Positions 15,216-62,000 of a stretch of 64,000 bases of DNA are shown piece by piece. A program made the position numbers and the translations under genes. The notes under the pieces are model-generated. The model was given only the letters and a program-made list of their open reading frames with translations, was not told the DNA's origin and ran no database searches. The stretch is from Mobula hypostoma (taxonomy: Eukaryota). Location of the stretch: positions 144,028,001 to 144,092,000 of the forward strand of contig NC_086097.1 of the NCBI RefSeq assembly GCF_963921235.1, given 5' to 3'. Each line of letters begins with the position of its first letter. The stretch's first letter is position 1.

Positions 15216-16148
15216 GTGAGTATATGGAACAAGCTTCTAGAAGAAGTGGTTGAGGCAAGTAGAATAGTGATTTTTAAGAGGCACATGGAGAGACGGGGAT
15301 TAGAGGGCTGTGGGCTGAACGCAGGAAATTGGGACGACCTAAGTGGACACTGGTCAGCATGGTCTCATTGGGCTGAAGGGTCTGTATTGATGATGTGCTT
15401 CTCCGTCTCTGTGACCACCCCCCCCCATTCTTTTTCCCCATACCTACACTATAATTTACAATAGACATTTAACCTACTGGCACATCGTTAAAAGATGGAA
15501 GGAAACTGGAGGATCTGGCTGTACAAAGTCCGATTAAACAGTACTTCTCCCCGTAATCTTGTGGGATTTCTCCAGGTGCTCCAGTTTCCTCCCAAGTTCC
15601 AGAAACGTGTGGGTTATGGATTTCTTGGTCACATGGGTGGTGCAGGCTCATTGGGTCAGAAGGGCCTGTCACTGTGCTGTATCTAAGTAAATGCTGGGGG
15701 CGGGGTGGGGGGAGTCTGTATTTAATCTGGGTCCCTAGAACTCCGAGGCATTTCAGTAGCAGCTATGGCACCATGATGTAGAATAAAGATGTATTGGAGC
15801 AGCTTGCTTCATAATATACACATGGGTTTAGGATTATTTTGGAGTATTGTGTGCATTTTTGGTTTCTGTGCCTGAGGAGGTATTAGTCTTGAAATTGCTG
15901 CTGCCCAGATTTGCAGTGTTGATTTCAGGTAAGAGAGGGTTCTGATGTAGTGATTGAGGAAGTTTGACTTGTATCTAAATTTTAAAAATATGACATTTAT
16001 AGATTGTACAAAATTATGAAAGGATCAAATGGCGATGTTGAGAGGCTGTTTTATTTATAACTATGGGCAGATTCATGATGTTGTCCATTTGGAAGAGAAT
16101 TTAGTTGAAGTTGTAAATGTGGTAGGCTTGGTTGAGAATGTGTAAACG

Positions 16149-17915
16149 AACTTTCATCTAAATGGTTTCCTTTATATTTAACTTTGATTGGTCGTATTAA
16201 TGCAGTTAAGATGTTTTTTTTGCCAAAATTTTTATATGTGTTTCAGGCATTACCAATTTTTGTTCCAAAATCTTTCTTTGATAAAGTTGACTCTAAAATT
16301 TCTTCATTTATTTGGCAGAATAAAAATCCGAGACTGGGTAAAATACATTTACAGAAAGCTAAGAGAGATGGAGGTTTAGCATTACCTAACTTTAGATTCT
16401 ATTATTGGGCAATTAATATTCGACATATGAAATTTTGGTTACTTGACCAGGATATACTATCTATTCCTAAATGGGTAGCATTGGAACTACAATCTGTTCA
16501 GGGCTATACACTTGGCTCTATTTTAGGTTCCTCTCTCCCTTTTGATTCGAAACGCCTTAAGCAGGTGTCTAACCCGATAGTTAAATATGCCCTGCGTATT
16601 TGGTTTCAATTCAGAAAATTTTTTGATCTTAATCAATTCGGGTTAGCGATTCCTATTTTAGGTAACATATTTTTTCCTCCCTCTTTTACGGATCGCGCTT
16701 TTCAAACTTGGAAGACTAAGGGTATTTTACGGTTTTTGGATTTATTTTTAGATGGTTCCCTTATGTCTTTTGAACAATTATCTAATAAATATAACTTATC
16801 AAGAATACATTTTTTTAGATATTTACAAGTTAGAAATTTCCTAAGTACTATACTTTCTTCCTTTCCAATGCTTCCTCCTACATATATTTTAGATTCGATA
16901 ATTAACCTTAATCCATGTCAGAAAGGTGCATCGGCTATGATTTATAATATTATCATGAAACTTAGGAAAGCTCCATTTGATAAGATTAGGGTAGATTGGG
17001 AACAGAAATTGGGGCTTACCATTTCTGTGGATGATTGGGGGCAGATTTTACAATTAGTTAATACTTCCTCTATTTGTGCTAAACATTCCCTAATTCAATT
17101 TAAAGTTGTTCATAGAGCACATATGTCCAAAGATAAGTTAGCGCGTTTTTACTTGCATATTAATCCTTTTTGTGATAGATGTTCTGGGCAGATAGCCTCT
17201 TTAACTCATATGTTTTGGTCTTGCCCTACTTTGGAAACTTTTTGGAGAGACATTTTTAATATTATTTCTCAGGTATTAAATATAGATATCTCTCCTCACC
17301 CTATTACTGCTATCTTTGGACTACCTAAAATTTCTAGTAATCTTTCCCCTTCAGCCCGTAGAATGATTGCATTTCTTACTTTAATGGCGAAAAGATGTAT
17401 TTTACAACATTGGAAAGAGCTTAATGCTCCAACTACCTTTTTTTGGTTCTCTTAGACGATATTATGTTTGAATCTGGAGAAAATTAGAAGTAATCTTTAT
17501 GATTCTTCATTTAAATTTGAACAGACTTGGGGATCTTTTATTCGATATTTTCATTTAATGTAATATATACCCTTCTTGTTTTTTTTTCACTGTTTTTAAT
17601 GGAGGTCGGGATTGAGGACGTGATTTTAAGTTTAACTCTGTTTGGTTTCAAGTTAGCCCATTGCTTTGCTTTGCTTTTAGTTAGTTGCACGGTGGGTTTT
17701 TTTGGGGTTTTTTTTTTCTTTTCTTCTATTGATATATATATAAAATTTAGTATACTATTATGTTATCTTGGTTTTTTATGTTTAAATTACATTGTAGTAT
17801 TCTTTTTTTGGTATTGATACCTTTTGTAATTTTATTATATTTTAACATTGTATTAATGTTTATATGGCTTACCTTTTTGTATACTTATTCAATAAAAAGA
17901 TTTAAAAAGAAAGAA
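16149..17915 (+). mobile_element. 5'-truncated L1-clade LINE (ORF2 C-terminal third, 3'UTR), 12-bp TSD AATGTGTAAACG
   Basis: ORF 16184-17455 with GRINAVKM..LPK, GGLALPNF and CDRC..SLTHMFWSC (CCHC knuckle); in-frame TAG at 17453 with homology continuing to TAA 17561-17563; AATAAA 17891; TSD at 16137-16148 and 17916-17927. Confidence 0.92.
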
Positions 17916-21925: not shown

Positions 21926-24900
21926 TCATCTAAAGTCTGCTCGCATTGGGGTTATATATTCAATCCATTTATTCAAGATTTGATAAAATGTTTCTTTTTG
22001 AGTTCTCAGGGAGTAGGTCAACTTTTCCATTCTAAATATTTCCAAGATAATTTCGTACCAATCTTCTAATGTAGGTGGTATTGGATTTAGCCATTTTCTA
22101 GTGATTGATTTCTTACTTGCCGCTAAGAGGGCCTGCAGCAACTTTATATCTTCCTTCTGTTCAAGGAACAATACATGCCCCAAATAGAGCGTCTCAAAAT
22201 TCAGAGGTATCTGGGACCTAAGTACCTTAACTAATGTTCTATGAATACCTTCCCAAAATAGACTTAATTTAGGGCAATCCCAGAAAATATGAAAATGATT
22301 TGCCTCCTTGGAGCCACACCTTCTGCAACACATCACATTTGTATCTTTATATTTTTCCTGATATGGGGTCTTGAAGTATCTTATAATGTTTTTCCAACAA
22401 TGTTCTCTCCAAGTCAAAGAATTAGTCGAGGACCATTGAAAGCTGCAGATTTTCCCCCAAGCCTCCTCTGAAAGTACCAACCCCGCTTCTTTCTCCCACT
22501 TCTCTTTAATATACAGTGTATTTACATTTTTAGCATGGGAGAGTGCATTATATAGGCGAGAAACTGATTTACTAGGTATTGAACTGCAAGCCGAATTCAG
22601 AATCTTGAAAAATTCTAATTCTACTGTTGATAGGTCTGTATATCTACAACTCTGGTTAACACAGTTTCGTATTTGAAGGTACCTAAAAAAATCATTATGT
22701 TCTAGGCCATGTTTGTCCTGCAGGATTTGGAAACTTTGTAATACTCTTTTATCTATAAATGAGAGGTAGGTTGTAAGACCTTTCTTTATCCATAGCTCAA
22801 ATCTTTTATCTCCTCTGTTGGGAAGGAATTCGGTATCATATGCACACCATCTAAAGAGTTTTAGCATGTTATTAATTCCACATGAATTAACCACCTTCTG
22901 CCATACTTTTAATGTAAGATTTATCCAAGCATTATTAAATTTTTCCAACTGAGCCATCAATCCTTTGTCAGCTATTGAGGCCTGAAGAGGAAAACTGTCA
23001 ACTAATCCAAATTCTATTTCCTTCCATCTAGCCTTATATTCCCTATTACACCAATATAACAGAGGGGTTATCTGTGAGGCATAAAAATAATTTCTCAGGC
23101 AAGGAAGAACCATACCTCCTCTTTCCTTCCCTAACTATAAGGTGTTATATCGAATTCTAGGTTTCCTTCCTTGCCAAATGAAGCGGGAAATCCATTTGTC
23201 CCATTCCCTGAATTGATTATCATCCACCTCCACTGGTAGAGTACGGAAAAGATATAATAACCGAGGAAGAATATTCATTTTTATAGTATTTATCCTTGAA
23301 TTTAAACTTAAAAAGGGGATAAGATTCCATCTATGCATATCTGCTTTTATCTCTGAGATTAATGGCCCATAATTTACCTGTGACAGTGTTGAAAGATCCT
23401 TCGGCAGGGTTATTCCTAAATATTTTAATGATTTAGCTTCCCACTTAAGATCGTATGTATCCTGCAATTTTTTGGATGGTGTATAATTTAGGGACATAAC
23501 CTGCGTTTTCTTTACATTTATTTTATAACCTGATATTTTCCCAAAGTTATCCAACAGTGTAAACAATCCTATAAATGATTTTTCTGGTACACTCAGACCA
23601 AAACATCATCTGCGAATAACGCCACTTTCTGTTCAATCCCTGCCACCTTGATACCTTTTATGATTTCGCTCTGTCTTATTAGTTGGGCAAGTGGTTCAAT
23701 ATATAGCGCAAAAAGGAGAGGAGAAATTGGGCATCCCTGTCTAGTGCCTCTCTCTAAAATGAAGGAGTCAGAGAGGTCCCCATTTATCTTAATTCGGGCT
23801 GTTGGGCTGTCATACAGAGTCTGAATTACTTTAATAAACCTTTCTTGAAAGCCGAATCTTCCTAACACTCTGTATAGGAATGCCCAACTAACCGAATCAA
23901 AAGCTTTCTCAGCGTCCAATCCTACTACCATTGTCTCTGTCTCGTTCTTATTAACCTGTTCTAATATGTGCAGAGTTCTCCTTATGTTGTCCTGTGTTTG
24001 TCTTTGTTGAATAAATCCAGTCTGGTCTAAATGGATTAGGCCAGGTAAAAGCTTTTCCAATCTGCGCGCTAATATAGATGTAAATAGTTTGTAATCTAAA
24101 TTAAGAACACTAATTGGCCGATAATTGCCACATTCTAGTTTATCTTTACCCTCTTTAGGAATAACTGAAATAATCGCTTCTCTCCAGGAAGGTGGAGTTT
24201 CTCCTCTCTGCAAGATCCAATTAAAGGTGTTAAGTAGTAATGGGGCTAACTGTCTTCAGGGACTTGTACCACTCTGAGGTAAACCCATCAGAACCCGGGG
24301 ACTTTCCAGCCTTTAACCTAGAGATGGCCACGTTCAGTTCTTTGACAGTTACTGGTTCTAATAAACTTTCATTTTGTAAATCTGTAAGTTTAGGTAGATC
24401 TAAAAAATTCAATACACTGTCTATATAGGGCTCATTGGGGGCCCGGGGTTGGGAGTACAGCTCTCGATAATACGTTTCAAAACTCTCTTGAATTTTCCCT
24501 ATTGTACTCTCCACAAGCTTTGTCTTTGGATTCTTTATTTTATGAATTGTATTGTCTGCTTGTTGTTTTCGTAATTTATATGCTAATAATCTAGCTGATT
24601 TACCTCCTACTTCATAATTCTTTTGTCTCAGGTAAAGAAAATTTCTTTGAGTTTCCAACGTATAAATATCATCAATTTCACTTTGCAATTTCCTAATTTC
24701 CTGTTTTCGATTTGAATTACTTTTGTTGCTATCTCCAACTTGAAGTTGTTTTAATTTTCCTTGAAGGTCTGCTAATTTTTGTGCATTGATTTTTTTCATG
24801 TGAGTAGTAATGGAAATAATTTTCCCTCTCAGTACAGCTTTCAATGTATCCCATAAAATCACTGGTGATGTTTCTCCCGTGTCATTAAGGTCTAGATATT

Positions 24901-25708
24901 CTTTGATTTCTCCCCTTAATCTCTCCATTACTTTTGGGTTATTAAGTATATGTGAGTTTAGCCTCCATAGTGTTTTCCTCATTTTCCTTTCCAAGATTAG
25001 AGACATAGAGACTGGGCTATGATCCGACAGATCAATTGTTGCAATATTACAGTTTTTTATCCTGAGTCTATCTGTATTAAAGATAAAGAAATAGTCTATC
25101 CTTGAATAGGCTGAATGAGGGAAAGAGTAATATGTATAATCTTTACTAGTAGGGTGTAATTCCCTCCAGACATCTATAATTCCCAACTCCTCCATCAATG
25201 AATTCACTTTCCGAGTCAGAGGTTTATTCTGAGTAACTATTCTTGAAGAATCTAATATAGGATTTAATCTAATATTAAAATCCCCTCCACAAATTACTAC
25301 CCCTCGAGAACTGACCATTAGGTCAAAAATGTGTCTATAAAATGACCATTCACTACCTGGAGGAGCATAAACATTCAGCAATGTTATTTCTGTACCTTCT
25401 ATTCTTCCTGTGATTTTTACAAACCGTCCTTCTTTGTCTCTAGTCTCTGAAATATGTTCATAATTAAGAGTACTTGATATTAAAGTAGCTACCCCTCTTT
25501 TGTGACTCAATTTATATGATGAATAAAATACATGCTTAAAGCCCATTCTTTTTAATTTTCCATGTTCAGATTGGCTCATATGTGTTTCCTGGAGGAAAGC
25601 TATTTGTGCCCTCTCTTTTTTCAATTTAGACATAATCTTATTTCTTTTAATTGGATTCAAAACCCCATTAACATTATAGGAAATTATTTTTACCAATTCA
25701 GTTTGCAT
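21926..25708 (-). pseudogene. L1 ORF2 (APE endonuclease, RT, CCHC), disrupted by 2 frameshifts (about 24245 and 23595) and 1 in-frame TAG (23135)
   Basis: SYNVNG, FLQETH, GGDFN, SRIDY, SDH (endonuclease); NYRPIS, LDAEKAFD, GTRQGCPISP, FADD (RT); CRRC..HFHIFWDC. Confidence 0.93.
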
Positions 25709-26070
25709 TTTTCTCTAGTAGAAAAAAAGCACTCTCCTTTTCTAACCAAACAGTAAGCAATCCCTTCTCAACAGTAAACCAAGACATATAACCACACCCT
25801 AGACATTTCTGAACGTATAACATTTGAAAATTTTCCCCGACTTCCCACAGTGAGGCCTCAGCACCGACCCGCCTCAGTTCAGAGGGATAACCTCTATCTT
25901 CACCCTGTGTTAGAGGGCCCTCAGCAGTTTGAATAATCATAGAGAATTTTCTCCTATTTATGTCTCGACCATATTGCTATCATTCAAGTTATTCCGCCTA
26001 GATTATTTTCAGTTACCAGTTTTCATTTTACTTTTAAGTCCGATTTACTCTTTTCAGTCATTTCTCTTAA

Positions 26071-27054
26071 TTAATCTGTATTCTCTGTACATTCGCGTCT
26101 GAATATTTGCAGCTTTTCCTTGTAGTTTGACACTCTGGTTCGAGTGGAGCGTCCTCGCCCCACTAACTGCCACAACTTCTGCCGAATCCTCTCCAGTAGC
26201 GACTCCGGTTGGGTGATAACTTTAATAGGTAGTCCCCGGTCCGCCAGGTCCGACGTTGCCTCCTCCACCGTAGCGTAAGTTTTTGTCCCTTCGTCGTAAA
26301 AGACTCTCAGCCGAGCTGGATACAGGGTCTGGAATCTGATGTTGTTTTCCTTCAGGACTCTCTGTGTTTCCGTATATTCCTTCCGTCTGGCAAGAATCCC
26401 CGGTGCGTAGTCGTGGTCTAAACTGATTTTGCAGTTGTTCCACATGAAACCTTTCTTTTGCCATGCTCTTTTAAGCACCTCTTCCTTCGTTCTGTAACTG
26501 AGAAATCTGATCAGAATCGATCTGGGCTGGGTGCCTGCCGGAGGCTGTGGTGCCAACGCACGGTGAGCCCTTTCTATCTCTAGGTCTTTTGCGGCCGGTA
26601 TATCAAGGTTCTCTCTAAGCAGCTTCTCCACGAAGGGAATCAATCCGGGTTTACCTTCAGTTCCTTCGGGAACTCCGTAGATCCTCACATTTTCCCTTCT
26701 CGAGCGGCCTTCTTGATCTATTAGTTTCCACTGGAGTTGGTCTTGTAGCTTCAGCATTTCTGCTATCACTTCCTCGGCATTTTGTAGCTTCTCTTCAATT
26801 CCAACAATCCTCGCTTCGGCTTCATCTACCCGCGAGTTAGTTTTTACTATTTCTCCTTTAATATCTTCCAGCTGTTTGCTGTTATCTTGTCGGAACTCGC
26901 GAATCTCTCCGAGAATCAAAGACAGAGTCACCGATTCCCCCTCATTATCTCCGTCCTGGCTTGCCGTGGGGGAGCTAGGCCCTTCGCCTTGCTGCATCTC
27001 TTTATGTTTATCAGCCTTCGAAGCGGACTTTTTATTCTTGTTCTTAGACATCAT
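26071..27054 (-). CDS. L1 ORF1p (coiled coil, RRM, CTD), intact 327 aa
   Basis: Heptad region, EGRSRRENVRIYGVPEG, IERAHR, PRSILIRF and LYPARL motifs typical of vertebrate L1 ORF1. Confidence 0.9.
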   Translation of the reverse strand: MMSKNKNKKSASKADKHKEMQQGEGPSSPTASQDGDNEGESVTLSLILGEIREFRQDNSKQLEDIKGEIVKTNSRVDEAEARIVGIEEKLQNAEEVIAEMLKLQDQLQWKLIDQEGRSRRENVRIYGVPEGTEGKPGLIPFVEKLLRENLDIPAAKDLEIERAHRALAPQPPAGTQPRSILIRFLSYRTKEEVLKRAWQKKGFMWNNCKISLDHDYAPGILARRKEYTETQRVLKENNIRFQTLYPARLRVFYDEGTKTYATVEEATSDLADRGLPIKVITQPESLLERIRQKLWQLVGRGRSTRTRVSNYKEKLQIFRRECTENTD

Positions 27055-27717
27055 CCTTGCCCCTTTTATTAATATAGTTATGCAATATTAAGTATTTGTC
27101 TAAATTCGATTTTGGGGCAGTTTACCTTCTTTTTTGTCGAGAGACCTTTTCCTTACGCCGCCATTCCCTTGATGACCCAGAAGTCCCCTCGCTCTCCATG
27201 AATCAACCTTCTATCCATACTAATATGTTATCACTAACCATGTGAACCTCTATTTTATGCAATGTTATGTGAACTATCAAATAAAAACCATTCAGCTAAT
27301 TCCACTGGTAATGTAATTTACCATGGTCAGTATTCAAAGTAATCTCTCAAACATGACTTCCATAAAATCATGCTGCTGCTATCCAGCAGATTCAGCTAGC
27401 ATCTGTTACGATGTCCTTAATGATGGATTCTACTGTTTTGTTGACAACCAATGCTGTTTAGTGATCTCCAGCCTCTCTGGTCCTTCTGATCTCCCAGCTT
27501 CTTCCTGACTTTCCGGGCCCCTTCAATGATCACAGTGAAACTACAGTGGTACTCAGAGATGGGCCTACCACTTGGTTGGAAACTTCTTCCTCTGTACAGG
27601 GGGTATGCCACTTGCTGGGAGTAATACACTCCTGAAAGTGTGTATTTGACGAGTCCATGATTTGTGATGGGGGAAGAGAGAACTGACCTCTGATTAATCC
27701 AGCCTCTTTCCTTACAG

Positions 27718-27790: not shown

Positions 27791-28458
27791 GTAGGGAATG
27801 GTTCATTTTTCTATAGATCTGATTTCAGGGGGCTGGAATAACTTGTACAGAATCATAAATATACTCTTCTGTAAGGTTATGATATCAAAGGTTAAGTTAG
27901 TAGACTAGACTTGCACATTGCTGGACTGATGTGACTTGAAATTTTAGCAGGGCAGCCTGGAAAGTAAATTTAGGTAAGTAAACTTTGGAATAACTAACTA
28001 GTCCAAGAAAATACTCATTTTAATTAATTGTCATATAAAATTCTGTCCTGCTTGACTGAACCATGTGGCTAGCAATATGGTTGATTCTTCACTGTGCCCC
28101 GGTAAAAGCAACCCAGTTATACCAAAATGCTACATCAAAGTTCATTCATCATGCTGGCTGCAACATTTTAAGGCGGCAGCCTATTTTAACGTTAGCTGAG
28201 AGTAAGTAATAAATATTGCCCATGTTAGTGACATCTATATCCTGTTTGTGTATGTTTTGAGTATAATATGGGGTTTGAAATAATGAAGTGTTTCAACATG
28301 TATTGAGAAATTTTCCTTTAGGTGTTGAAAGAAAAATGAAATACATTTTAAACCTTTCCTCCAGAAAGCTATAGATAATTGTTCAGAATTATCAGGAAGA
28401 ACGATGGTGCAGGACTAGAGACATGGATAAATCCTAGCCTCATAACTATTTAATTATA

Positions 28459-29100
28459 CAGTCATCCCTCGGTATCCGCAGTTCCAGGACCCCCCCGCAG
28501 ATACCAAATTCCGCGGATGCTCAAATCCCTTATATAAAATGGCGTAGTATTTGCATATAACCTATGCACATCCTCCTGTATACTGTAAATCACCTCTAGA
28601 TTACTTATACCTAATACAATGTAAATAGTTGTTATACTGTATTGTTTAGGGAATAATGACAAGAAAAGGTCTGCACATGTTCAGTACAGACGCAACCACT
28701 GTAGCTCTTCTGCGAACACTGATGCTGCCTCGGCACTAGCTGGTGCCGATTCTCCCGTCATCTTTAAGTTCTTGAGGCTGTAGCGCTTTACATAGCTAGC
28801 CAGCCATCCCTTACTAGCCTTAAACTCCTTCCTCTCGCTCCCAACACAAGTAGTGAACAAACGAGACGTAAGGCGACCAATGCTCAAACGACGAGTGCTG
28901 GAGAGAGACTGAGGATCTGTGAAATGGCGGGAGGCTACAGCAGGGTATGCCTACACATCACTTCATTTGCGAGGATTCGGCATAGTGCTCGGCTCGGCGT
29001 GCGGCAAATTCAAGTTTTGCTTTTTGGAACTTCCTGGAATCTTTTTTCAAATATTTTCGATCCATGGTTGGTTGAATCCGCAGATACGGAGAGCCGACTG
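28459..29100 (-). mobile_element. Internally deleted Tigger/pogo DNA transposon (MER2/MER2B-like ends) with a transposase remnant; TA TSD
   Basis: TA|CAGTCATCCCTCGGTATCCGC ... GCAGATACGGAGAGCCGACTG|TA terminal inverted repeats; minus-strand FKASKGWLASYVKRYSLKNLKMTGESA (CENP-B-type HTH of Tigger transposases). Confidence 0.9.
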
Positions 29101-31709
29101 TACTCCCAATTCTTGGTTTCTTGAATAATAGATATCTTATCCTATCAATTTCTCCCCTTCCCCCCCCCCAAAAAAAAACCAAAACCTTCCACTCTTTAAT
29201 CCAGTAAATCTTAATCTGTAAATTTCTGGACATGAAATCTTTTTATGATATCTCCTTTGTGTGGGGATAAAATTGGAGGATTGGGAAAGAAATCTTTACA
29301 GGGACGGAGAATATGCAAAATCTGCTTCGATGGCATCCTAAGATAAGGATTGAATTTGACATTCTGGGCTGTATAGCAGAATAGGTTTTTTGAGCTGCAT
29401 GTCGTACCACTTCTATGTTCTTTTCTTAGAAAATAGTCAAGGTGCTTTAATTTCACTTTGCTTCCAAGATCCTCATATTTTCCTGGAGTTATTGTCTTTG
29501 GTCCCCCATGTACAATAACAACTGGCTTGCCCCTCCCTTCCTTTCCAATATTCTTTCAAGTCACCCTGGTATCATATAGGAAACATACAATCTAGCACTC
29601 TCGATCTTGATTGCAAAGATACCTTTAAATACTTGAAACAAAAACCAATAGATTTCTAGATGTGAATAATATAAGGAAATGTTGATCATCTTGTTGAACA
29701 GCAGAGTAGAGCTTAAGAGGCCAGGTAGTCTACTGTTACTGTGTTCTCTGTTGATACAATTACCCCTGTAACTTGTTTCACCATACTTCTCTTCCCACTT
29801 TGGGAGCAGCCAGCTTTAAAGTGGTAGAGTCTGTTATCCACATAGGTACATCATGCTGCTTGGAAATAATTAATTTCTGTAGACAATTATACTATCTCAA
29901 TCGGATCTGCCTACTGAGTCTTTTGGCGACAACAATCTTTGTTCTAGTCTTGCACTCCTCTGCTAAATGTGACCAAGGTTTAAGGGTAATGCTGAGCAGC
30001 CACTCATTAGACAGTATTTTTATTTAGGGGTAACGTGGATCAGACCTTTCTGGCCCAACAAGCCACACTGCACAATTTACAATGACCAAATAACTTCCTA
30101 ACCGATATGTATGTCTTTGGACTGTGGCAGGAACTGGATCACCCAGAGGAAACCCAGTCACAGAAAGTACAAACTGCTCTAGGATTGAGCTCTGAACACC
30201 CAAGGTGTAACTGCTATGCCACCGTGGTGAATATTTTTAGTTGATACTCCAGCTCAGTCTCTGGAGATGTATGCTGCTAGAACAATTTTGTCCACAAGAG
30301 GCATGTATGTACAGTAAATCTTTCATTTTACTTTGTTTCTAGGTCTTGGTGTAGAAGTGCAGAAACTGGCAGTAAAGTATTACAAGTTCTTGATTTCCAT
30401 AACAATATTGCCAAAAAAATACATACTTGAGCTTACTCTACCTACAACCACTACTCAAACCAAGAAGTAGCATATTTATTGTGCTCTAACCAAATGTTCA
30501 ATGTCGTTTCGAGCTGCATTGCAATTTCTTGAATTTTGTGATGATGGCTTTGGAAAGGAAGACAATCATATGGGTGCATTATGGAATTTTAGGGAGGGAG
30601 CTAATAGTTTCAGCAGTTCTTGCAGGCAAGGTTGTAGTTGGCTTCCTATGGAATCTGTTGATATTTGCAGCGTGTACTACTTGCCAATGTTTAAGGGATC
30701 CAGGGAAAACTAAATTGTCCAGGTTTTCTGGCCATTCATTGCTAGATACAGGTGCTGTTAAGGGATATGCCGTATGGACATAAAGCCTCCAGATATTTGT
30801 TCCCAGGACTAGACAAGTATTTTCATGGACTTTCCAGGATAACATTTTCAGGAAATTTTGTATTGTATACTTGCATTGGCTTCATTTTAGCAAGGCTCAC
30901 ACAGAATTAGTCATACAGAAATTCACTTTCTTAGACAATCTAGTATTCCTGCAGGATAAGTCCACTTGTATTCTGGGACTAGTAGAAGTAGACATGATTG
31001 TGGCCCTAGAGGAGAAACTGTAATAGAGGAATAATATGTTCTGGAAAAATTGGTCTCATCAGAACAGATGCAAAAGCCAGAAGAACTGGGAGAATATAAG
31101 AGGTTCCTTTTGGAAAGCAGGATGGAAGAATATGTAGGCAATGTAACTGTGTGAGTTCAAGAACTTGGTTGCTTACTCATCATTTGAGATGGAGCTAAAG
31201 TTAAGAATATGAATTGCATGAGTGGAAGGTAAAAGCTAGCACCAGTAGGAAAACACAAGTGGTTCTGCAGATGCTGGAAATCCTGAGCCAAATTTTTGAA
31301 TCTTGATGAAGGGTCTCAGCCCAAAACATCAATCGTTTATTCATTTCCATAGATGCTGCCTGACCTGTTGAGTTCCTCCAGCAGTTTGTCTTCTGTAGCA
31401 ATTCTCATGTTGCCTTCATGTCACTGCCAGATGTTTTCCATTAATTCAAGGGGAAAGAAGGTAGTCTAAGGAGGAGGGGTGAAACCATCTCCCCTTGTTG
31501 TACCTTCCATGCAAACACGAGATAGGTGCTGGTTACATACACATCTTCAACCTAAAATGTAACTACATCAATCACCCACTCCATTGATGCTGCCCAATTT
31601 TGAGTACTTCAGTTTCTAGATATTGGAGTAATCAAGGATATGGTGTTGAACCTCCTGAGCTCTGTTTTTCATTCTTTCCATTACTTACCACGTTCATTTT
31701 TTGTTACAG

Positions 31710-34327: not shown

Positions 34328-35754
34328 CTAACAGTAGCTTTAATTACAGTGCTTTTGTCAAAATGAAAGTTGAAACGTATACAAAACATCTGATTAGTAG
34401 TGTAATGAAAGGATCAACTTCACATCAATAACTCATCCTGATCAGACTCAAGTATTCGCTCTCCAGTTTCTCAGCTGGTTTTAAAAGCTTTAAACACTGG
34501 CAAACCAAGACCTTGCAGTATTTATAATCAGATGAGTTCTGCAGGTTTGGAGAATGGTATGGGAGAAAAGGGAAATGGAATTGATGGCAATACAATGTCT
34601 TGTGCAATACCTAAAATGGAATGACTCGCACATGTAGTTTCCACACATTGGGAAAAGCAAAGAAGGTTAGGGGCTTAGGTGCATTCAATGACATTGATAC
34701 TTACTACATAAGCCATGGGACAAGCTAACAAACAAAACCCAAAAAAAACTTCTCCATCTGACCCAACAGTGCCTGCATGCTGTGATCAGTTTACCATGTT
34801 GGTAGGGGGTAAGCCACAAAGGAAAAGTCAGGAATTTAACAGGCAAAATTCCTGGCACTTCAGGTAACCACTCAAAATTTGCTGTGTTCACTAATTATCT
34901 CTTCCCCAATGCAATTCATGTTTTTGAAGTTTAAGTGGTCCCCTAGACCATGAAACCTTCAGCTTTTCACTAAAATAAATTTAAAATCAATCTGACTGAT
35001 TAAATTAAGCCATTGAGTTTGACTTTAAATTATTCAAAAAGGCAGATAAAGTAGGTTACAAGTTTTTTTATTCTGAACTTCAATTCCAACCTCCATAGGT
35101 CTAGGAAAGGGATGCTCGGATAAGCTTTAAATTGAGACCAACTCACAGAAGTGCAAGAGAATCCGAACCCAGAAATCATTGAGGTGTGTTGGCAGTTTTA
35201 AAACCAAAACTACAAGCAATCCTTCACTGCTGAAATTCCAGCTTTGGGCAATGAGGGAAGACAAGCAGAAAAATCAATAAAGGTCAGATGCAAGTTCCCT
35301 CCCTCCATCAAAAGCCATGCCCCAAACTGCAGGAAAGCCCCATTTAAGAGCTTGTAAAGCAAATCTCTTATGAGACTTTGTGCATTGTACTGTTGGGAGC
35401 GTATTCAACTCCCAATTCCAAGCTCAGTTTGTCCCCTTTCTACACTAAATTCTTACATGTCAATATGAACCGTAAAGGAAAACAGAACAATCATGGGGTA
35501 AATATTGCATAGGAGTAGCAGGAAACTGCCTCGTTACAAAAAGGGACGATATATACACATTTTAAATAAGAAACCACATTTGCTTTCAAGTCTGTACTTC
35601 TCACCCATACAGTATGGTGGTATTTATAGTTCTAGTGATCAGATGTAATGAAGCAGGTTCCTGGCACCCAATACCACAAAGTAGCAGTTGCCATACGACA
35701 TAATGAAGCAGAAATAAGGGGAGGGAGAGTGGTGAGTAGGAAGGAAGAAAGGAA

Positions 35755-35916
35755 TTATTTGTTACTTTTAAGCTGACTGGACAACCACTCCAGTCCTTCA
35801 TATAAGCCATCGCCACTGGTTGCACAGGTTGCCTGGATGAACCAGGTCCTCTGGCGGAGTGAGTGTAGACCCAGCTTATCAGTGATCTCTGCAGCATTCA
35901 TCGCATTAGGCAGATC
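35755..35916 (-). CDS. ARF1: ADP-ribosylation factor 1, last coding exon
   Basis: [53 protein letters not shown]; acceptor TTCTTAG. Confidence 0.93.
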
Positions 35917-36829
35917 CTAAGAACAGAAGAACAATTGGAAACAGCATCACATTTAGTTCTAGGCTGATCAATATCACTGTGACATCTTTAGTAATGCTAA
36001 TTATTATTGTCATAAGTACTGAGATAGTGAAAATTTGATTTACATAATGTCAAGACAGATTATACCACACATATTTACACTAAGGTAGTAAAAAGAAAAT
36101 GCAAAATCATGTTACAATTACAGATGAAGTCTATTGCAGGTAGATTGGGAGATCAAAAGTTAATCTTTAGTGTACAGGAGGTCCACCCAAGAGTTTGATA
36201 ACAGTGGGATAGAGGCTGTCCTGTAGTCTAGTGGTTCTTGCTCTTGATGGGAGAGGAGAGTGTGCTCAGGGCAGGAGGGGTCCTTGATTTTGTTAGCAGC
36301 TTTTCAATCAGCAGAAAGTATAGACAAAGGTAATGAAGGGGAGGTTGGTTTGCATGATGGGCTGCGTGGCATTCACAATTCTATGCATTTTTTTCAGTAG
36401 AGTAGTTGCATTATTAAGCTGTGATGCATCTATAAAATTTGATGAAGATCAATAGGGGAACTGCATTTGAAAGAATCTTGTGAGCATACCAGAACTAACA
36501 TATCTACCAACACAGTTAAAATTGAGACAGCATTCATTTCAAAAATGACAAAACTGAATAGAGAGTACATGTGACAAACATTACAAGCACTCATACAGCT
36601 CATGCCAATAAACAAACATGCCCAACTAACCGGAATATTAAAATTTACACTTCAGTTTCCAGATACGGTTTACCAATTAATTTGGTTGGTGGGTTTTTGT
36701 CCACATATGCTACCCAGTACACTATGGGCTGTAATTAGAAGTTCATAAACTAGAAAACCAGAAATTAGGCTATTTGGACCATCCCGTTTTCTCAGCCCCA
36801 CTCTCCATTATATGTAATAACTGCAACTA

Positions 36830-37033
<204 letters not shown>

Positions 37034-39383
37034 TCATAATATAAATATCCCATTAAGGGCCATTATGGGATCTATGCCCAAATGACTAATTCTGATGCCA
37101 TTGAATATTTAATAAGAAACCAACTGCAGAGCAATGCAAATGCATCCATTCACTTTCAAATCTCTGGTCTGGGACATTTATAATGCTGTCAAATACATCC
37201 TAAGATGCGCCGGGACACATCAGTGATGTAACCTGGAGTCATCAGATGTTTTGGGTCTTTCAACATCACTTTTTCCCCAGGTGATCCAGCCAGGGTTGCT
37301 AAAGCCCTGATTTGTATTATACGTAGCTTATGCTGTAGAGAAATTAGTAAGAAGAGAGGACTGTATTTTTCAGGGTAGAGGGACATAATGCAGAAATCAT
37401 AACCCAGTAACTGGCGGTAAGGGGGAAGAAAAGTCAAGAAAGCACAATTTTTGACAATGGCTCAGGTATGGCTTGAGCTAATGATGGATAGCTAAGCCCT
37501 TAGATTGTTAATGATCAGTGTGGGGTCCAGAGAGACATTGGTGCCCACCTTGAAACTGATCAGGGTCAATTGAGTTGAATCTTCAATATTCTCAATCAAT
37601 TACTCATCATCAATACCTATTGTTAACAAATATTAGGCCATAAAACATCTTGAAAAATAGGAGAGCAAGTTGTAAATGACACCTGGTCTACATCTTCACT
37701 TGTCCTTCAGCTGGCAAGCAGCCATTTGTTCAGTAAAAGTTTATATCAAATCCAATTTAAAATAAAACAGGAGATTTTAGTCAGATGCCTAATGGATATT
37801 TTAAGCCAGCTGAAAAAAGTTGGATGTTCTAGTCATTTGACAGGTGACTTTGTCAGTGTTCAAGATCACTGAGTCAAGGGAACAGCTAGCTACCACACTT
37901 ACCTGTATTGCTGTGAACCCTAGGAGCTGCACCATCAGTGCTAATTTAATTGTGGCCATTACAAAGGGGTCTCCCTGCTCTTATACGCCCCCTTCGTAGC
38001 AGAAGATCTGGTCTCTGAACTGCAGTGAGCAGTACCAATGTACAAGCCTTTGACTAAACCCTTTGATCCTATCAGCCAATAGGGGTTGTAAAACAGAACT
38101 TTGCCCACTAGAATTTTATTTCTTTTTACTTCACAATAGAATGCCAGCATCTTAACCACAAAGCTAATCTTAATAAGACTAGTGTCAAACATGGGTGGTC
38201 CGACTTGTGGCCCAATGCATTTATAACCAGCTCTCCATCTCCCAAATCTATATAGGTAATGTTTCAACCTACCTGTAATAAGTGAAACTAATCTACAGCA
38301 CTAATGGGGATATGTCCATTTCACCTCCAGTATTAAAGTCACCCTAAACTCAATTGTTCCACTGCAGTACATGTACAATCATTTTCTTTGTGCACATTCA
38401 GAAGCCAAGCTTTAAGGTCAACTTGTTCTCAGCAATAAATAAGAGTCTGTAGAGGTCATCTACCAACTGTCCCCTCAATACCTATTATCCATTGATAACA
38501 AAGGTTAACAATGATAATCTGGAAAACATCACTTCTCATGTCCCTCAGTGAAGAGAGATAGTGATGATGAAATATACTATTACCTTGAGTTTACCAGCAT
38601 AGTCTTTGACTGAATGAGTAAAAGTATGATTGAAAGTCAAAAACTCAAATCCCTCACAAAACTCATGGTTTTAGCATTGAAACCTGCAAATCTATACACT
38701 CCTGAAATTTAGATCATCTGTATCTGGTACCTGAAGCACTGGGGCATACCATCAATGCTATCTCCATGAAACCTTCAATCTACTGGAAGAAAAAACGTCA
38801 ACGTTCTCTCTCAGGCCAACACCCCAGCTCAGAAGCTGTAATTACACTCAGACAGCCTCATTTGTCATATAATGTTCAGCACATGACACCAGACTCTCAA
38901 AGTAAACACAAGACCTTAAGGCATGGGAGCAGAATTAGGCTACTTGGCCCAGAGCTTCGCCATGGGAAGAGACTGCCAGGTGGGCAGAAGGTTAAAAGGT
39001 GTACTCACGGCCTTCTTAAAAATTAAAATATTCCTAATAACTCCTAGGAATCTCTAGTCATTGACACCTTTGTACAAATGGAGCACTCAGAATTGTATTG
39101 AATATATCCAGTTCAAACTTTGGAAGCACATAGAAATCCAGTGTAAATGACAGAAGCACATTATTCAACATTCTAACAAAATATTGTTTCATTGGCCTCT
39201 GGCACGGTAAAGGCGGCAGGTACCACACTGGACTTATCAGTCACCTCAGAACCAGAATGGAGGCAAATCATCCTGGATCCTAAAGAGCTGCTGTCTAAGC
39301 ATGCAAAGTCTAAATTAATCTACTTAGATAAATCTTCTTTCAAATGAAAAGCCAGTGAACAAAGGTATTTTGTGGAATATTTA

Positions 39384-39587
<204 letters not shown>

Positions 39588-39744
39588 TTAATACCTTTAA
39601 CATTCAATCTTGATCAGCTGACAGCTCCAATTCCTTCAACAATGAAAACTTTTCCAATACGTCCTTACTCTTAACCTCTATTCATAAAAAAACAGCATTT
39701 GGTATCCTTCACTTAAACGATTTTCTCAACTTACTCCGCCATCA

Positions 39745-40072
39745 GTTGGGTGGTGGAATGGAGATAAGTCCCTACCAAAGAGATACAAGGTGCTGCTCCT
39801 CTCCACTAGCCTGCAGGTCACCCATTGGGCAAGGCATAGCACTTGCTTAGCCCCCTGATCAGGGTCACATTAAGCCATAAGAGCAGCTGGTGCATATCAC
39901 CAAATCCTGGGTATGCAAAGACTTACATTGGGCAGACAATCTCTGAAGAGTATTGATAATGCCTGGGGTCACCTATCTTGTAAAGACAGTGCCCAGAAGG
40001 TGGCCAATAGGCATGGTCATGAGACGATGATTGCTTACGTCATATGACATGGTATATAATGATGACGACGAC
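39745..40072 (+). mobile_element. RTE-clade-derived non-autonomous element (5'UTR-like part plus 3' end)
   Basis: Ends in CGTCATATGACATGGTATATAATGATGACGACGAC, resembling an RTE 3' end with a trinucleotide tail. Confidence 0.5.
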
Positions 40073-40759
40073 TATGCCATTACGACAAACCATGCTCCCA
40101 GATCTGTGTTCTTGTAACCATTTCATAAAAGTGTTTTCTCCTTTATCTAATCAAAATACAAATTAATTTTGCCATCATTTCACTAGCATAGCTATCCTTT
40201 GAGTTTTTTTAAAATCATTCTCTCAGTTCACCATGCCTCCAAACTTAGTGACATTTGTAAATTTGGAGATTGTGCTCCCTAAATCCTAGCTCAAGACTTC
40301 AGCTCGTACCAAGAAAAGCAGTAGACCAGCAAAATAAATGTCATGATCAAATACATTATGAGGCCCATGTATACCACACAGCCTGTTTTTCTTATTAACC
40401 CTAAAAAAACTATCAATTTGACTTTTAATCAAATTATGCTGGTCTTCTCTAATCAATTCAAGTTTGCTCAAATTAATGAAACTCCATCCCTTATATTTGG
40501 CTTTGGTATTTCTCCCAATGCCATTTTTATACTGTCTGCTCTGTAATAACCAAGCTCATCCCTTCAGTTTTAGAAACGTGGTGTAACACTGCAAATTTGA
40601 TAAGTGAAAGATTCCAACCTCAGCCTCCACTATTTTCTCCCAGGTTTCTCTTAAATGCTTGGACGATTTATACAGTAAGCATGTGGCCTTTTTTGTATGT
40701 CCTTTATATTAAATCCGTAGCCATCTCAACTCATCTTCCTATGCTGAAGATAGAGGATC

Positions 40760-42350
40760 TTCATCTGATACCAAATGCATATGCAGTACCTCAGTCCCTG
40801 AGAATAGTGAAAGACGCAGGCAAGGAGATTGCTGGGGTTTTGACAGATCTTTCTGAACTAACAAAAAGTGATGTCCCAGAGGACTAGAGACTAGCAAATG
40901 TGCCTTTGCGCCAAAAATGGGGACAATCCACGTAATTCTTAGCCAGTGAGCCTCACATCATGTGGTGAGTATATGAGGGATAGGATTTATGCACATTTGG
41001 AAAGACACAGCCTGTTTAGAAACAGTAAGCATGGGTTTTGAGGTGGTGACAAAGGAGTTTCATGAGGACAAGCGAGTGCATGTTACTTACATGGACTCTA
41101 GTGAGGCATCTGACAAAATCCCTTATGGTAGATTGACTTAGAAAAAAAAACACGCGGATCCAGGGCGAATTGCAAATTTAGATCGCGCACCAGATTGCCT
41201 GAGAGAAGACAGTAAGAGTGGAAGTTGTCTTTCCTCGCTGGAGGGCGTACTAGTGGCATTCCACAAGGATTAGTGATGGGACCTCTACATGTATCAATGA
41301 CTTGGATGAAAATGTAGTTGGGTGGATCAAGTTTGCAGTCTTGCAGATTAGTGGAGCTGTAGACAGTGTAAAGAACTTAATGTATCGATCTGTTACAGAT
41401 ATAAGCTGAGAAGTGGCAGATGGGGTTTAATCTAGGCAAGTGAGAGTTGTTGCACTTGGGAAGATCAAGTGAAAGGAGAATGTATACAGATAATCGTAGA
41501 GCTCTTCATAGAGGGATCCTGGGGTCTAAGTCTATAGTCCATTGAAAGTGGCTACACAAGTGGATTAGGGTGAATGGTGTGCTTGCCTTCATTAGTAGGA
41601 GTTGTAAGAAGTTGTGTTGTAGCTATATAAAACTTTAGACCACAACTCGAGTATTGGTTGCCCCATTATAGGAAGGATGTAGAGAGGGTGCAGAAGATGT
41701 CTAACCTACAAGGAGAAGTTGGTGTGCTTGCCTTCATTAGTAGGAGTTGTAAGAAGTTGTGTTGTAGCTATATAAAACTTTAGACCACAACTCGAGTATT
41801 GGTTGCCCCATTATAGGAAGGATGTAGAGAGGGTGCAGAAGACGTCTAACCTACAAGGAGAAGTTGGACAAACTTAGCTGCTCTCCCTAGAGTATCAGTG
41901 GCTGAGAAGAGACCTGATAGGTTTTCTTAAAAAATTATAAAATCATAAGAGGCAAAGATAGGGTAAATAATCCGAATCTTCCCCCACCCCACCCTGAGTA
42001 GAAATATGAAACACCAAAAGATCAAACTGATTCCACTGCAATCACTGTTAACCTTTTAAAGACACCTACCACCCTCACATCGCCTTTAAAAAGCACTCCC
42101 CAAAACACATTTCTAAGTTAGGGTGGGGGTGGAGTTTAAAAGTGGTATGAGGATAGTAGGTGTCTGCAACGGGTTACCAGTGATTGTAATAGAATCAGTT
42201 TGGTAGAGTTTGACGTTTTTCTAGGTTAACATTCAAATACGAAGGGAATGGGGTAATGTGGATGATACACAGGAGGATATTTAGTACAAATTGGCAAGAC
42301 GACACAATATTGAGAGATGAATTGCTTTCCCAGTAATGTACTGCTCTATG
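40760..42350 (+). mobile_element. Decayed CR1 LINE
   Basis: CR1 segments such as GCAGTACCTCAGTCCCTGAG, AGTGGCATTCCACAAGGA and AAGTGGCAGATGGGGTTTAAT. Confidence 0.7.
41576..41865 (+). repeat. Tandem duplication, 2 x 145 bp, 1 mismatch
   Basis: 41576-41720 equals 41721-41865 except one T/C; TGG microhomology at the junctions. Confidence 0.95.
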
Positions 42351-42657
42351 TTCCTACCTTTCGGCAACTCTTTTCCCTCTCTGCTGGGTATGGATAGTTT
42401 AAGTCCCTCACTGGATCAGTACGACCTTTGAACACCTTCAATTCTCCTTTATTGGTGGCTAGGGATACTCTTACAAATAATACTTCAAATAAAATCATAA
42501 AATGCTGGAAATACTGTAAATTTCAACCTTTCTACATATCCTGCATTATCTGGACATTTAGAGCACTGAGTTTTTAATTTTCATGTCCACCATGTGCAAC
42601 TTAAGTTACAACATCTCTATTATATCATGTCTCCATGTATTAAATTCTGACAACTCA

Positions 42658-42846
<189 letters not shown>

Positions 42847-57095: not shown

Positions 57096-58373
57096 CACGG
57101 ACTCTCACAGCTACCTGGACTATTTCTCCTCTCACCCTGTCTCTTGCAAAAATGCCATCCCCTTCTTGCAATTCCTCCGTCTCTGCCGCATCTGCTCTCA
57201 GGATGAGGCTTTTCATTCCAGCACGAAGGAGATGTCTTCCTTTTTTAAAGAAAGAGGCTTCCCTTCCTCCACCATCAACTCTGCTCTCAAACGCATTTCT
57301 CCCATTTCACGTACATCTGCTCTCACCCCATCCTCCGGCCACCCCAGAAGGAATAGGGTTCCCCTTGAACTAACCTACCACCCGACCAGCCTCCAGGTCC
57401 AACATATAATTCTCAGTAACTTCTGCCACTCCCAACGGGATCCCACCACTAAGCATACCTTTCCCTCCCCCCCTCTTTTTGCTTTCTGCAGGGATCACTC
57501 CCTACGTGACTCCCTTGTCCATTCGTCCCTCTCATCCCTTCCCACTGATCTCCCTCCTGACACTTATCCTTGTAAGCGGAACAAATGCTACACATGCCCT
57601 TACACTTCCTCCCTCACCACCATTCAGGGCCTCAGACAGTCCTTCCAGGTGAGGTGACACTTCACCTGTGAGTCGGCTGGGGTGATATACTGCGTCCGAT
57701 GCTCCCTGTGTGGCCTTCTATATATCGGCGAGACCCGACGTAGGCTGGGAGACCGTTTCGCTGAATACCTACGCTCTGTCCGCCAGAGAAAGCAAAATCT
57801 CCCAGTGGCCACGCATTTTAATTCCACATCCCATTCCCATTCTGATATGTCTATCCACGGCCTCCTCTACTGTCAAGATGAAACCACACTCAGGTTGGAG
57901 GAACACCACCTTAACACCGTCTGGATCGCCTCCAATCTGATGGCATGAATATTGACTTCTCTAACTTCCGTTAATGCCCCTCCTCGCCTTCACACCCTAT
58001 CCCTTATTTATTTATTTTATATATATTCCCCTTTTTTTTCTCTCTTTTTTTCTCCCTCTGTCCCTCTCACTATAACTCCTTGCTTGCTCTCCACCCTCCG
58101 GGCTCCCCTCCCCACTTCTCTTTCTCCCTAGGCTTCCCTTCTCCAGCTCTTAGATCCGGCCTTCCCCTGCTGTCTTCTATCATTTCGGATCTCCCCCTCC
58201 CACTCCCACTTTAAAATCTCTTACTATCTCTTCTTTCAGTTAGTCCTGACGAAGGATCCCAGCCCAAAACGTCGACTGTACCTCTTCCTATAGATGCTGC
58301 CTGGCCTGCTGCGTTCACCAGCATTTTTTGTGTGTGTTGCTTGAATTTCCAGCATCTGCAGATTTCCTCGTGT
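57096..58373 (+). mobile_element. Penelope-like element, 5'-truncated (RT thumb region, GIY-YIG endonuclease, 3' tail); 14-bp flanking duplication CACCATTAACTGTC
   Basis: QFLRLCRICS...ERGFP; VIYCVRCSLCGLLYIGETRRRLGDRFAEYL...VATHFN (GIY-YIG); duplication at 57082-57095 and 58374-58387. Confidence 0.9.
58241..58278 (+). ncRNA. Penelope-associated minimal type I hammerhead motif (G12->A, likely inactive)
   Basis: TAGTC-CTGACGA-AGGATCCCAGCCC-AAAA-CGTC-GACTG. Confidence 0.7.
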
Positions 58374-60235: not shown

Positions 60236-62000
60236 AACAAGACAAATTCTGCAGATGCTGGAAATCCAAGTAACATGCACAAATTGTTGGAGGAACTCGG
60301 CAGGTCAGATAGCATCTATGGAAAAGAATACTGTCAACATTCCAGGCCAAGACCCTCAGCAGGACTGGAGAAAAATAAATGAGCAGTCGGAGTTAGAAGG
60401 TGAGTGAAAGGGAGGGAGAAAAACAAAGTGATAGGTGAAACTAGGAGCGGGAGGGGTGAAATAAAGAGTTAGGAAGTTGATTGGTAAAAGAGATACAGGG
60501 GGAATCTAATAGGAGAGGACTGAAGGCAATAGAAGGAATAAAAAGGGGGAGGAGCACCAGAAGGAGGCAATGGGCAGGCAAGGATATAAGGTGAGCAAGG
60601 GAAAAGGGGACGGGGAATGGGGGCAGGATCATTACCAGAAGTTCGAGAAATCGATGTTCATGCCATCAGGTTGGAGGCTACACAGACAGAATATAAGGTT
60701 GCAAACACGAGGAAATCTTCAGATGCTGGAATTTCAAGCAACACACATCAAAGTTGCTGGTGAACACAGCAGGCCAGGCAGCATCTCTAGGAAGAGGTAC
60801 AGTCGACGTTTTGGGCCGAGACCCTTCGTCAGGACTAACTGAAAGAAGAGATAGTAAAAGATTTGAGAGGGGGAGGGGAAGATCTGAAATGATAGGAGAA
60901 GACAGGAGGGGGTGGGATGGAGCCAAGAGCTGGACAGTTGGTTGGCAGAAGGGATATGAGAGGATCATGGGACAGGAGGCCCAGGGAGAAAGAAAAGGGG
61001 GATGGGAGGGAAAGCCCAGAGGATGGGCAAGGGGTACAGTGAGGGGGACAGAGGGAGAAAACGGAGAGAGAGAGAAAAAAAGAATGTGTGTATATCAATA
61101 AATAAATAACGGATGGGGTATGAGGGGGAGGTGGGGCATTAGCGGAAGTTTGAGAGGTCTATGTTCATGCCATCAGGTTGGAGGTTACCCAGACAGAATA
61201 TAAGGTGTTGTTCCTCCAACCTGAGTGTGGCTTCATCTTTACAGTAGAGGAGGCTGTGGATAGACATATCAGAATGGGATGGGATGTGGAATTAAAATGT
61301 GTGGCCACTGGGAGATCCTGCTTTCTCTGGCGGACAGAGCGTAGGTGTTCAGCGATACAATCTCCCAGTCTGTGTCGGGTCTCGCCAATATATAGAAGGC
61401 CGCATCGGGAGCACCGGACGCAGTATTTTATCACCCCAGCCGACTCACAGGTGAAGTGTCCCCTCACCTGGAAGGACAGTCTGGGGCCCTGAATGGTAGT
61501 GAGGGAGAAAGTGTAAGGGCATGTGTAGCACTTGTTCCGCTTACAAGGATAAGTGCCAGGAGGGAGATCAGTGGGGAGGGATGGGGGGGGGGACAAATGG
61601 GCAAGGGAGTCATGTAGGGAGCAATCCCTGTGGAAAGCAGAGGGCGAGGGAGGGAAAGATGTGCTTAGTGCTGGGATCCCGTTGGAGGTGGCGGAAGTTA
61701 CGGAGAATTATATGTTGGACCTGGAGGCTGGTGGGGTGGTAAGTGAGGACCAGGGGAACCCTATTCCTAGTGGGGTGGCGGAAGGATGGAATGAGAGCAG
61801 ATGTGCGTGAAATGGGGGAGATGCGTTTGAGAGCAGAGTTGATGGTGGAGGAAGGGAAGCCCCTTTCTTTAAAAAAAGAAGACATCTCCTTCATCCTGGA
61901 ATGAAAAGCCTCATCCTGAGAGCAGATGCGGCGGAGACAGAGGAATTGCGAGAAGGGGATGGTATTGCTCCTCCAACCTGAGTGTGGCTCATCATGGCAG
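60236..62000 (-). mobile_element. Composite Penelope-like insertion: older copy (60236-60700 plus 61963-62000) with a younger copy (about 60703-61962) inside; 13-bp flanking duplication TTGTCACAACACA
   Basis: Duplication at 60223-60235 and 62001-62013; minus-strand SQFLCLRRICSQDEAF and YCVRCSRCGLLYIGET. Confidence 0.85.
60800..60837 (-). ncRNA. Penelope-associated minimal type I hammerhead motif (G12->A)
   Basis: Minus strand TAGTC-CTGACGA-AGGGTCTCGGCCC-AAAA-CGTC-GACTG. Confidence 0.72.

Follow-up and report, generated by a model that had tools for sequence, protein, structure and literature searches.

A deletion-derived Tigger copy in the ray Mobula hypostoma connects MER2-type ends with a family of intact transposases

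Introduction

Tigger/pogo transposons insert at a TA target, possess short terminal repeats starting with CAG and encode transposases with a CENP-B_N domain, an HTH_Tnp_Tc5 domain and a catalytic triad of the DD29-36D type (PMC7386202, PMC9219625). Horizontal spread of Tigger elements together with derivatives that arose by internal deletion is already known. DNA transposons that stay within a genome evolve neutrally, unless transfer intervenes, and transfers involving mammals are rare: mammals or birds took part in 24 of the 975 events of the largest screen of vertebrates (PMC7070016). For Tigger families other than the one treated here, transfer involving a carnivore and two sharks has been claimed, with a distance of 0.65 for one pair (PMC9219625).

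MER2 (345 bp, 8377 human copies, median divergence 18.5%) and MER2B (336 bp, 2224 human copies, 19.2% diverged) are short repeats (PMC1914374, supplements), and the activity of MER2 has been placed near the divergence of the placental orders (PMC1914374). Repbase assigns both to the Mariner families but does not count them among the coding ones (PMC5753468). In the papers searched, we found neither a link between MER2 and cartilaginous fishes nor the name of a coding parent of MER2.

An earlier note on DNA from the ray Mobula hypostoma had pointed to a Tigger element with ends near-identical to MER2/MER2B that retains transposase sequence. Here we analyze this element within the window, i.e., the whole 64-kb stretch of DNA to which the note referred. 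We describe it as a deletion derivative of a Tigger transposon that connects MER2-type ends with a family of intact transposases.

Results

The internally deleted Tigger/pogo element occupies positions 28459-29100 (642 bp) of the M. hypostoma window sequence and is bordered on both sides by TA target-site duplications, located at 28457..28458 on the left and 29101..29102 on the right. It lies on the minus strand, such that its 3' terminal inverted repeat is found at 28459..28481 and its 5' terminal inverted repeat at 29078..29100; the two match at 17 of 23 bases. With the whole window as control, this score was reached by 3 of 208,116 TA-to-TA pairs at a spacing of 300-1000 bp, and the two pairs other than the element are AT-rich low-complexity sequence. 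The TA-flanked inverted repeats reported in the earlier note are therefore real, and TA target and short repeats match the description of Tigger elements, for which repeats of 8-33 bp are given (PMC9219625). The CpG observed/expected ratio is 0.84 in the element vs. 0.19-0.23 in its flanks. No second copy is present within the 64-kb window, Rfam returned just two chance-level matches for the element, and no unusual single-stranded DNA fold was detected for it (z 0.06).

The element is situated ~7 kb beyond an ARF-family gene, as counted from the stop codon, and its immediate neighbor on the left is a near-full-length L1-type element. The former encodes a small GTPase on the minus strand (~35750-42800, exons near 42.7, 39.5, 36.95 and 35.8 kb) and harbors two head-to-tail 145-bp copies that are 99% identical (41575-41867). 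The latter (21926-27087, minus strand) consists of ORF1 and a broken ORF2, and a second L1 fragment lies at 16136-17455 on the plus strand. Further to the right, two inverted copies of a 1.2-kb repeat (57151-58373 and 60705-61966; 84% identical, 2.3 kb apart) are presumably Penelope-like; a Pfam search with their two ORFs identified no family, for which reason no conclusion on the host was drawn from them. Finally, a 299-codon C-terminal fragment of a hAT transposase is located at 62766-63665 on the minus strand.

Positions 28699-28839 (minus strand, 47 codons) comprise the second helix-turn-helix and the linker of a pogo/Tigger transposase, i.e., the end of HTH_Tnp_Tc5 and the adjoining linker, corresponding approximately to residues 131-177 of the full-length proteins P0009 and P0002 introduced below. 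The match to Pfam HTH_Tnp_Tc5 has an E value of 6e-4 and a score of 20.2 bits, which for this fragment falls just below the cut-off of 22.2 bits, and the alignment of the minus-strand peptide with full-length transposases covers residues 124-179 of the latter, in agreement with the helix-turn-helix remnant proposed in the earlier note. The remnant possesses neither a start codon nor a CENP-B_N domain nor a DDD catalytic domain; the catalytic triad has been deleted from the element, as expected of a non-autonomous derivative.

A protein search with the remnant yielded matches to seven proteins among 46 candidates. Its best relative, P0002 (JGI, 607 aa), is encoded on a contig of 2416 bp, which is the size expected for a full element. 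P0002 is 95.6% identical to its cluster mate P0009 (Logan, 611 aa). Both contain CENP-B_N, HTH_Tnp_Tc5 and DDE_1 domains, pass the Pfam cut-offs for CENP-B_N and the helix-turn-helix and have an intact catalytic triad (D194/D308/D341, corresponding to DD32D), such that intact transposases of this family do exist. Residues identical to the remnant number 39 of 47 in P0009 and 38 of 47 in P0002. They decrease to 36-37 of 47 in three of four ray GTF2I fusions (32 of 47 in the fourth, which has an internal deletion), 29 of 47 in a Trichuris protein and 24 of 47 in elephant and horse proteins. When P0002 was used to scan JGI data, 77 distant Tiggers with 29-72% identity were found, the P0002 contig itself not being among them, while a scan of IMG/VR found no relatives of P0002. 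An Atlas lookup assigned P0002 to a generic TIGD1-like cluster and returned nothing for the peptide from the non-coding end.

The nearest named sequences to the remnant are the N-termini of GTF2I-like gene models from Hemitrygon, Hypanus and Mobula. These NCBI gene models (P0003, P0004 and P0010-P0028) start with residues 1-192 of a Tigger transposase (CENP-B_N plus helix-turn-helix), which are 85-88% identical to P0009, and end with a hAT-derived region. The fusion is common to dasyatid and mobulid rays, and no published report of a ray Tigger-GTF2I fusion was found in our literature search. As far as the gene models indicate, the ray GTF2I-like gene represents an apparent double transposase capture that parallels placental GTF2IRD2. 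Judged from these ray relatives, a myliobatiform ray is the probable host of the window sequence. The ray fusions are followed by skink genes (74%), in which a catalytic aspartate has been lost, and by elements from Trichuris suis (68-73% amino acid identity).

Phylogenetic trees were calculated from 38 rows over residues 1-192 and from 31 rows over residues 1-470. The rows were picked from the best matches and represent near relatives only, most of them named TIGD1-like, with no reference outgroups (pogoR, Passer, others). P0002 and P0009 fell into a clade that includes the ray fusions, skink genes and whipworm elements and that received a support of 90/90 (not starred) in the 38-row tree and an SH-aLRT value of 97 in the 31-row tree. 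In both trees, elephant, sirenian, horse and opossum proteins fell apart from this clade. We examined whether these proteins, which include an elephant KRAB-transposase fusion, might form the mammalian branch of the family, and rejected this, since they constitute a separate clade; a clade uniting P0002/P0009 with the elephant and manatee proteins was likewise rejected (AU p 7e-34). Therefore, the family contains no named mammalian protein.

Two further groups of proteins are worth mentioning. An elephant KRAB-Tigger fusion with intact triad and a close manatee relative (P0033, P0146-P0148, P0151) belong to a sister Tigger family; the word "elephant" is absent from the main text of the preprint by Cosby (10.1101/2020.05.07.082677). 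Skink gene models and two further relatives (P0029, P0007, P0006, P0008) belong to the same Tigger clade as the remnant; in three of them the first aspartate of the triad has been lost, and one carries a fused SCAN domain. At the level of sequence, the lost aspartates and the SCAN fusion suggest domestication of this Tigger clade in squamates.

Tigger elements of Trichuris suis rank among the closest known systems. P0173 and P0193 belong to the same transposase clade as P0002/P0009 (SH-aLRT 97), and Trsu-Tig1F has a terminal repeat similar to that of the ray element (PMC7386202, Table S1). On the other hand, the 68-73% amino acid identity renders the Trichuris suis elements too distant as donor, and the motifs searched for were absent from the first 400 bases given for Trsu-Tig1F (PMC7386202, Table S1). 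The elements in the proposed shark-mammal transfer are much more distant from each other and have other terminal repeats than the ray element (PMC9219625), whose terminal repeat is absent from the five chondrichthyan rows and the mammal rows of Table S1 in the same paper. The remnant motif was not found in the supplements of PMC9219625 and PMC7386202, where the first 400 characters of long cells were searched.

DNA searches found no copies of the element's ends in plasmids, phages, IMG/VR, GTDB or the 77 JGI loci; the IMG/VR locus L078 was considered as such a copy and rejected as a chance match. The left non-coding end is stop-free over 72 codons in one frame and was therefore searched as a peptide in order to catch spurious open reading frames over related copies. 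When this peptide served as the query in a phmmer search of 1.84 billion protein representatives (E<=1e-3), 423 matching proteins were obtained, and the best 150 of these were examined. To judge from their sequences, these best 150 of 423 are spurious open reading frames over short copies of one family. None of the 150 contains a Pfam family or resembles the P0009 transposase. All 150 cover positions 28525-28599 of the window, 44 also match the right end (28900-29110), which was absent from the query, and a single one touches 28715-28940, at chance level. None of the 175 window-wide HSPs of these best 150 at E<=1e-3 lies outside the element. Public protein collections contain hundreds of spurious open reading frames over MER2-type repeats (P0298-P0447).

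When the cut-off was relaxed, both ends were found joined in 62 peptides, and their junctions form clusters near 29045/28700 and 29000/28629. Four peptides, which stem from three loci, extend to ~28949 and then join near 28618, such that the common right end reaches ~150 nt in these four and not the ~100 nt that the earlier note had assumed. Twelve peptides with both anchors imply a length of the short copies of 278-329 bp, with one outlier of 174, to which ~21-36 nt missing from the window copy have to be added, resulting in ~300-365 bp overall. The element can thus be divided into a non-coding 3' end common to the short MER2-type family (28459..28700, minus strand), in which the window copy carries several small deletions compared with the short copies, the transposase remnant, an inner segment (28840..28948, minus strand) and a non-coding 5' end common to the short family (28949..29100, minus strand), which is devoid of ~15 nt of subterminal repeat present in the latter. 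The inner segment, probably 5' non-coding DNA of the parent, lies outside the short-family peptides apart from one chance-level match of 11 residues, and a match to the transposase extends at most over its last few codons.

The short family is represented by peptides in three frames, which allowed the likeliest base to be inferred at each determinable site. The inferred bases are identical to the window at 95 of 101 sites in the right end and at 196 of 205 sites in the left end, i.e., at 291 of 306 sites (95%) in total; several of the best 150 of 423 peptides represent the same locus twice. The best random start of the inference gave 95 of 101 and 192 of 204 sites, respectively. For calibration, 12 simulations (six divergence levels, two each) were run through the same pipeline. 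True identities of 92-98% were recovered as 94-100%, those of 88-91% as 84-91% and those of 79-85% as 82-89%. Based on these simulations, true substitution identity amounts to about 94-96%, a figure that refers to substitutions at determinable sites, leaves out indels and was calibrated without CpG decay. The near-identity of the ends to MER2/MER2B claimed in the earlier note is supported indirectly, via a short family of fitting size, and it is not limited to the terminal inverted repeats but extends over ~300 non-coding sites inside the 23-bp repeats.

In 16 of the 150 peptides we recognized flanking repeats which we take to be Alu-derived (eight), ruminant SINEs (two), pig SINEs (two) and mammalian L1 (four). 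The 16 peptides with mammal-type flanks alone are identical to the window at 188 of 195 sites, the eight Alu-flanked peptides alone at 125 of 135. Five of the seven differences between the 16 peptides and the window are common to the other 134 peptides, and the 16 and the 134 are therefore regarded as one family. Counted by eye, 38 of 73 columns agree between one of the L1 flanks and human L1 ORF2p, compared with 29 of 70 for the window's own intact L1 over the same stretch. For the second L1 flank tried (P0411), no L1 match was obtained, and sequence searches provided no confirmation of an Alu-type flank. An all-against-all comparison of 72 flank pieces linked two pairs and no more. From the flanks recognized in 16 of 150 peptides and the one modest L1 comparison, the short family is likely mammalian. 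The name MER2/MER2B for it is our assumption, supported by size. As ~300-365 bp brackets the lengths of MER2 (345 bp) and MER2B (336 bp), the label fits, and the short family is likely to be eutherian MER2/MER2B.

Discussion

The element at 28459-29100 is a longer sister derivative of MER2/MER2B and not a MER2 copy, given its 642 bp and its helix-turn-helix remnant. It resembles MER2/MER2B in both non-coding ends (~95%, estimated via the short family of fitting size), in the TA target and in the lack of coding capacity of its own. It differs from MER2/MER2B (336-345 bp) in its length, in the possession of 47 transposase codons and of ~110 nt more inner sequence and in its occurrence in a ray. 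We consider it quite probable that we are dealing with a doubly deleted, non-autonomous Tigger copy, the ends of which are ~95% like those of likely MER2/MER2B, and that horizontal transfer brought the family into rays and placentals, likeliest by separate invasions from a third host. Non-coding identity of ~95% would be difficult to explain if the ends had been inherited vertically for more than 400 My; thus, horizontal transfer is likely, and the earlier note's argument that such identity would be unexpected is supported by the ~300 sites now compared.

In this scenario, a full-length parent of ~2.3-2.4 kb would have lost most of its open reading frame in two deletions. The parent would have comprised at least 250 nt of 5' sequence, an open reading frame of ~1830 nt and at least 240 nt of 3' sequence, which adds up to a length similar to the 2416 bp of the P0002 contig. 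As the derivative retained the transposase-binding ends, the family transposase could have bound its terminal repeats in trans, excised it and inserted it into a TA, whereupon the copy would have decayed by ~5% and suffered small deletions. The same parent may, through deletions reaching further into its ends, have given rise in mammals to at least three short classes with junctions near 29045/28700, 29000/28629 and 28950/28618. Since the short classes would be deletions of the same parent, an enzyme of the P0009 type likely was the mobilizer of MER2/MER2B.

Among the alternatives, a direct jump from a ray to an early placental mammal, or the reverse, without a long-lived third host is improbable, though it fares better than the others. 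In its favor, the ray copy combines all the end sequence that is distributed over the short classes. Furthermore, the activity windows in rays and placentals may overlap, as the GTF2I fusion is common to dasyatids and mobulids (Hemitrygon, Hypanus, Mobula) and MER2 activity dates to near the divergence of the placental orders. However, there is no known ecological route for such a jump, and the transposase clade also contains a parasitic nematode and skink genes, which favors separate invasions from a third host.

Very improbable is a chimeric origin, in which a MER2-type element captured a piece of another Tigger's transposase and P0009/P0002 would not represent the MER2 parent. The remnant sits between the ends just as a simple internal deletion would have left it, with respect to both order and orientation, and the terminal repeat of a Trichuris suis DD32D Tigger matches the right end at 18 of 24 positions by eye (PMC7386202). 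The divergence of the remnant (39 of 47 residues identical to P0009) is also in line with that of the ends.

An even smaller chance has to be assigned to vertical inheritance of one Tigger lineage since the gnathostome ancestor with ends held constant by transposase binding, despite the presence of related Tigger transposases in skink, turtles, lizards, coelacanth and mammals and the slow evolution of chondrichthyan DNA. The ~95% identity continues over ~300 non-coding sites, deep into the element's interior and well past the 23-bp repeats, and the clade contains a nematode element at 68-73% amino acid identity. A topology joining the vertebrate rows with P0002/P0009 was rejected (AU p 0.012), this group having been chosen after seeing earlier trees. 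In addition, human MER2 copies alone have diverged by 18.5% since insertion (PMC1914374). The least credible explanation, i.e., that the window contains contaminating mammalian DNA or has been misassembled, or that the short-family peptides stem from rays and not from mammals, is contradicted by the inner 250 bp that are missing from the short copies, by ray genes as the source of the nearest named proteins, by both intact TA duplications in flanks of continuous low-CpG DNA and by a single one of the 72 flank pieces matching the window elsewhere, weakly (E 0.007).

Returning to horizontal transfer of a deletion derivative, we lean, with somewhat better than even confidence, towards P0009/P0002 being the intact transposase of the missing MER2/MER2B parent, one family having swept through myliobatiform rays, early placentals and possibly arthropods at about the same time, with capture of its N-terminus together with a hAT C-terminus by GTF2I in rays. 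Spurious open reading frames deposited as proteins are usable as a proxy library for non-coding repeats. If the proposed relationship is true, the ~95% non-coding match between a ray and eutherians would constitute a clean case of transfer, and a repeat family with ~10,600 human copies would obtain a natural, intact candidate transposase, with which its requirements in cis and in trans would become testable.
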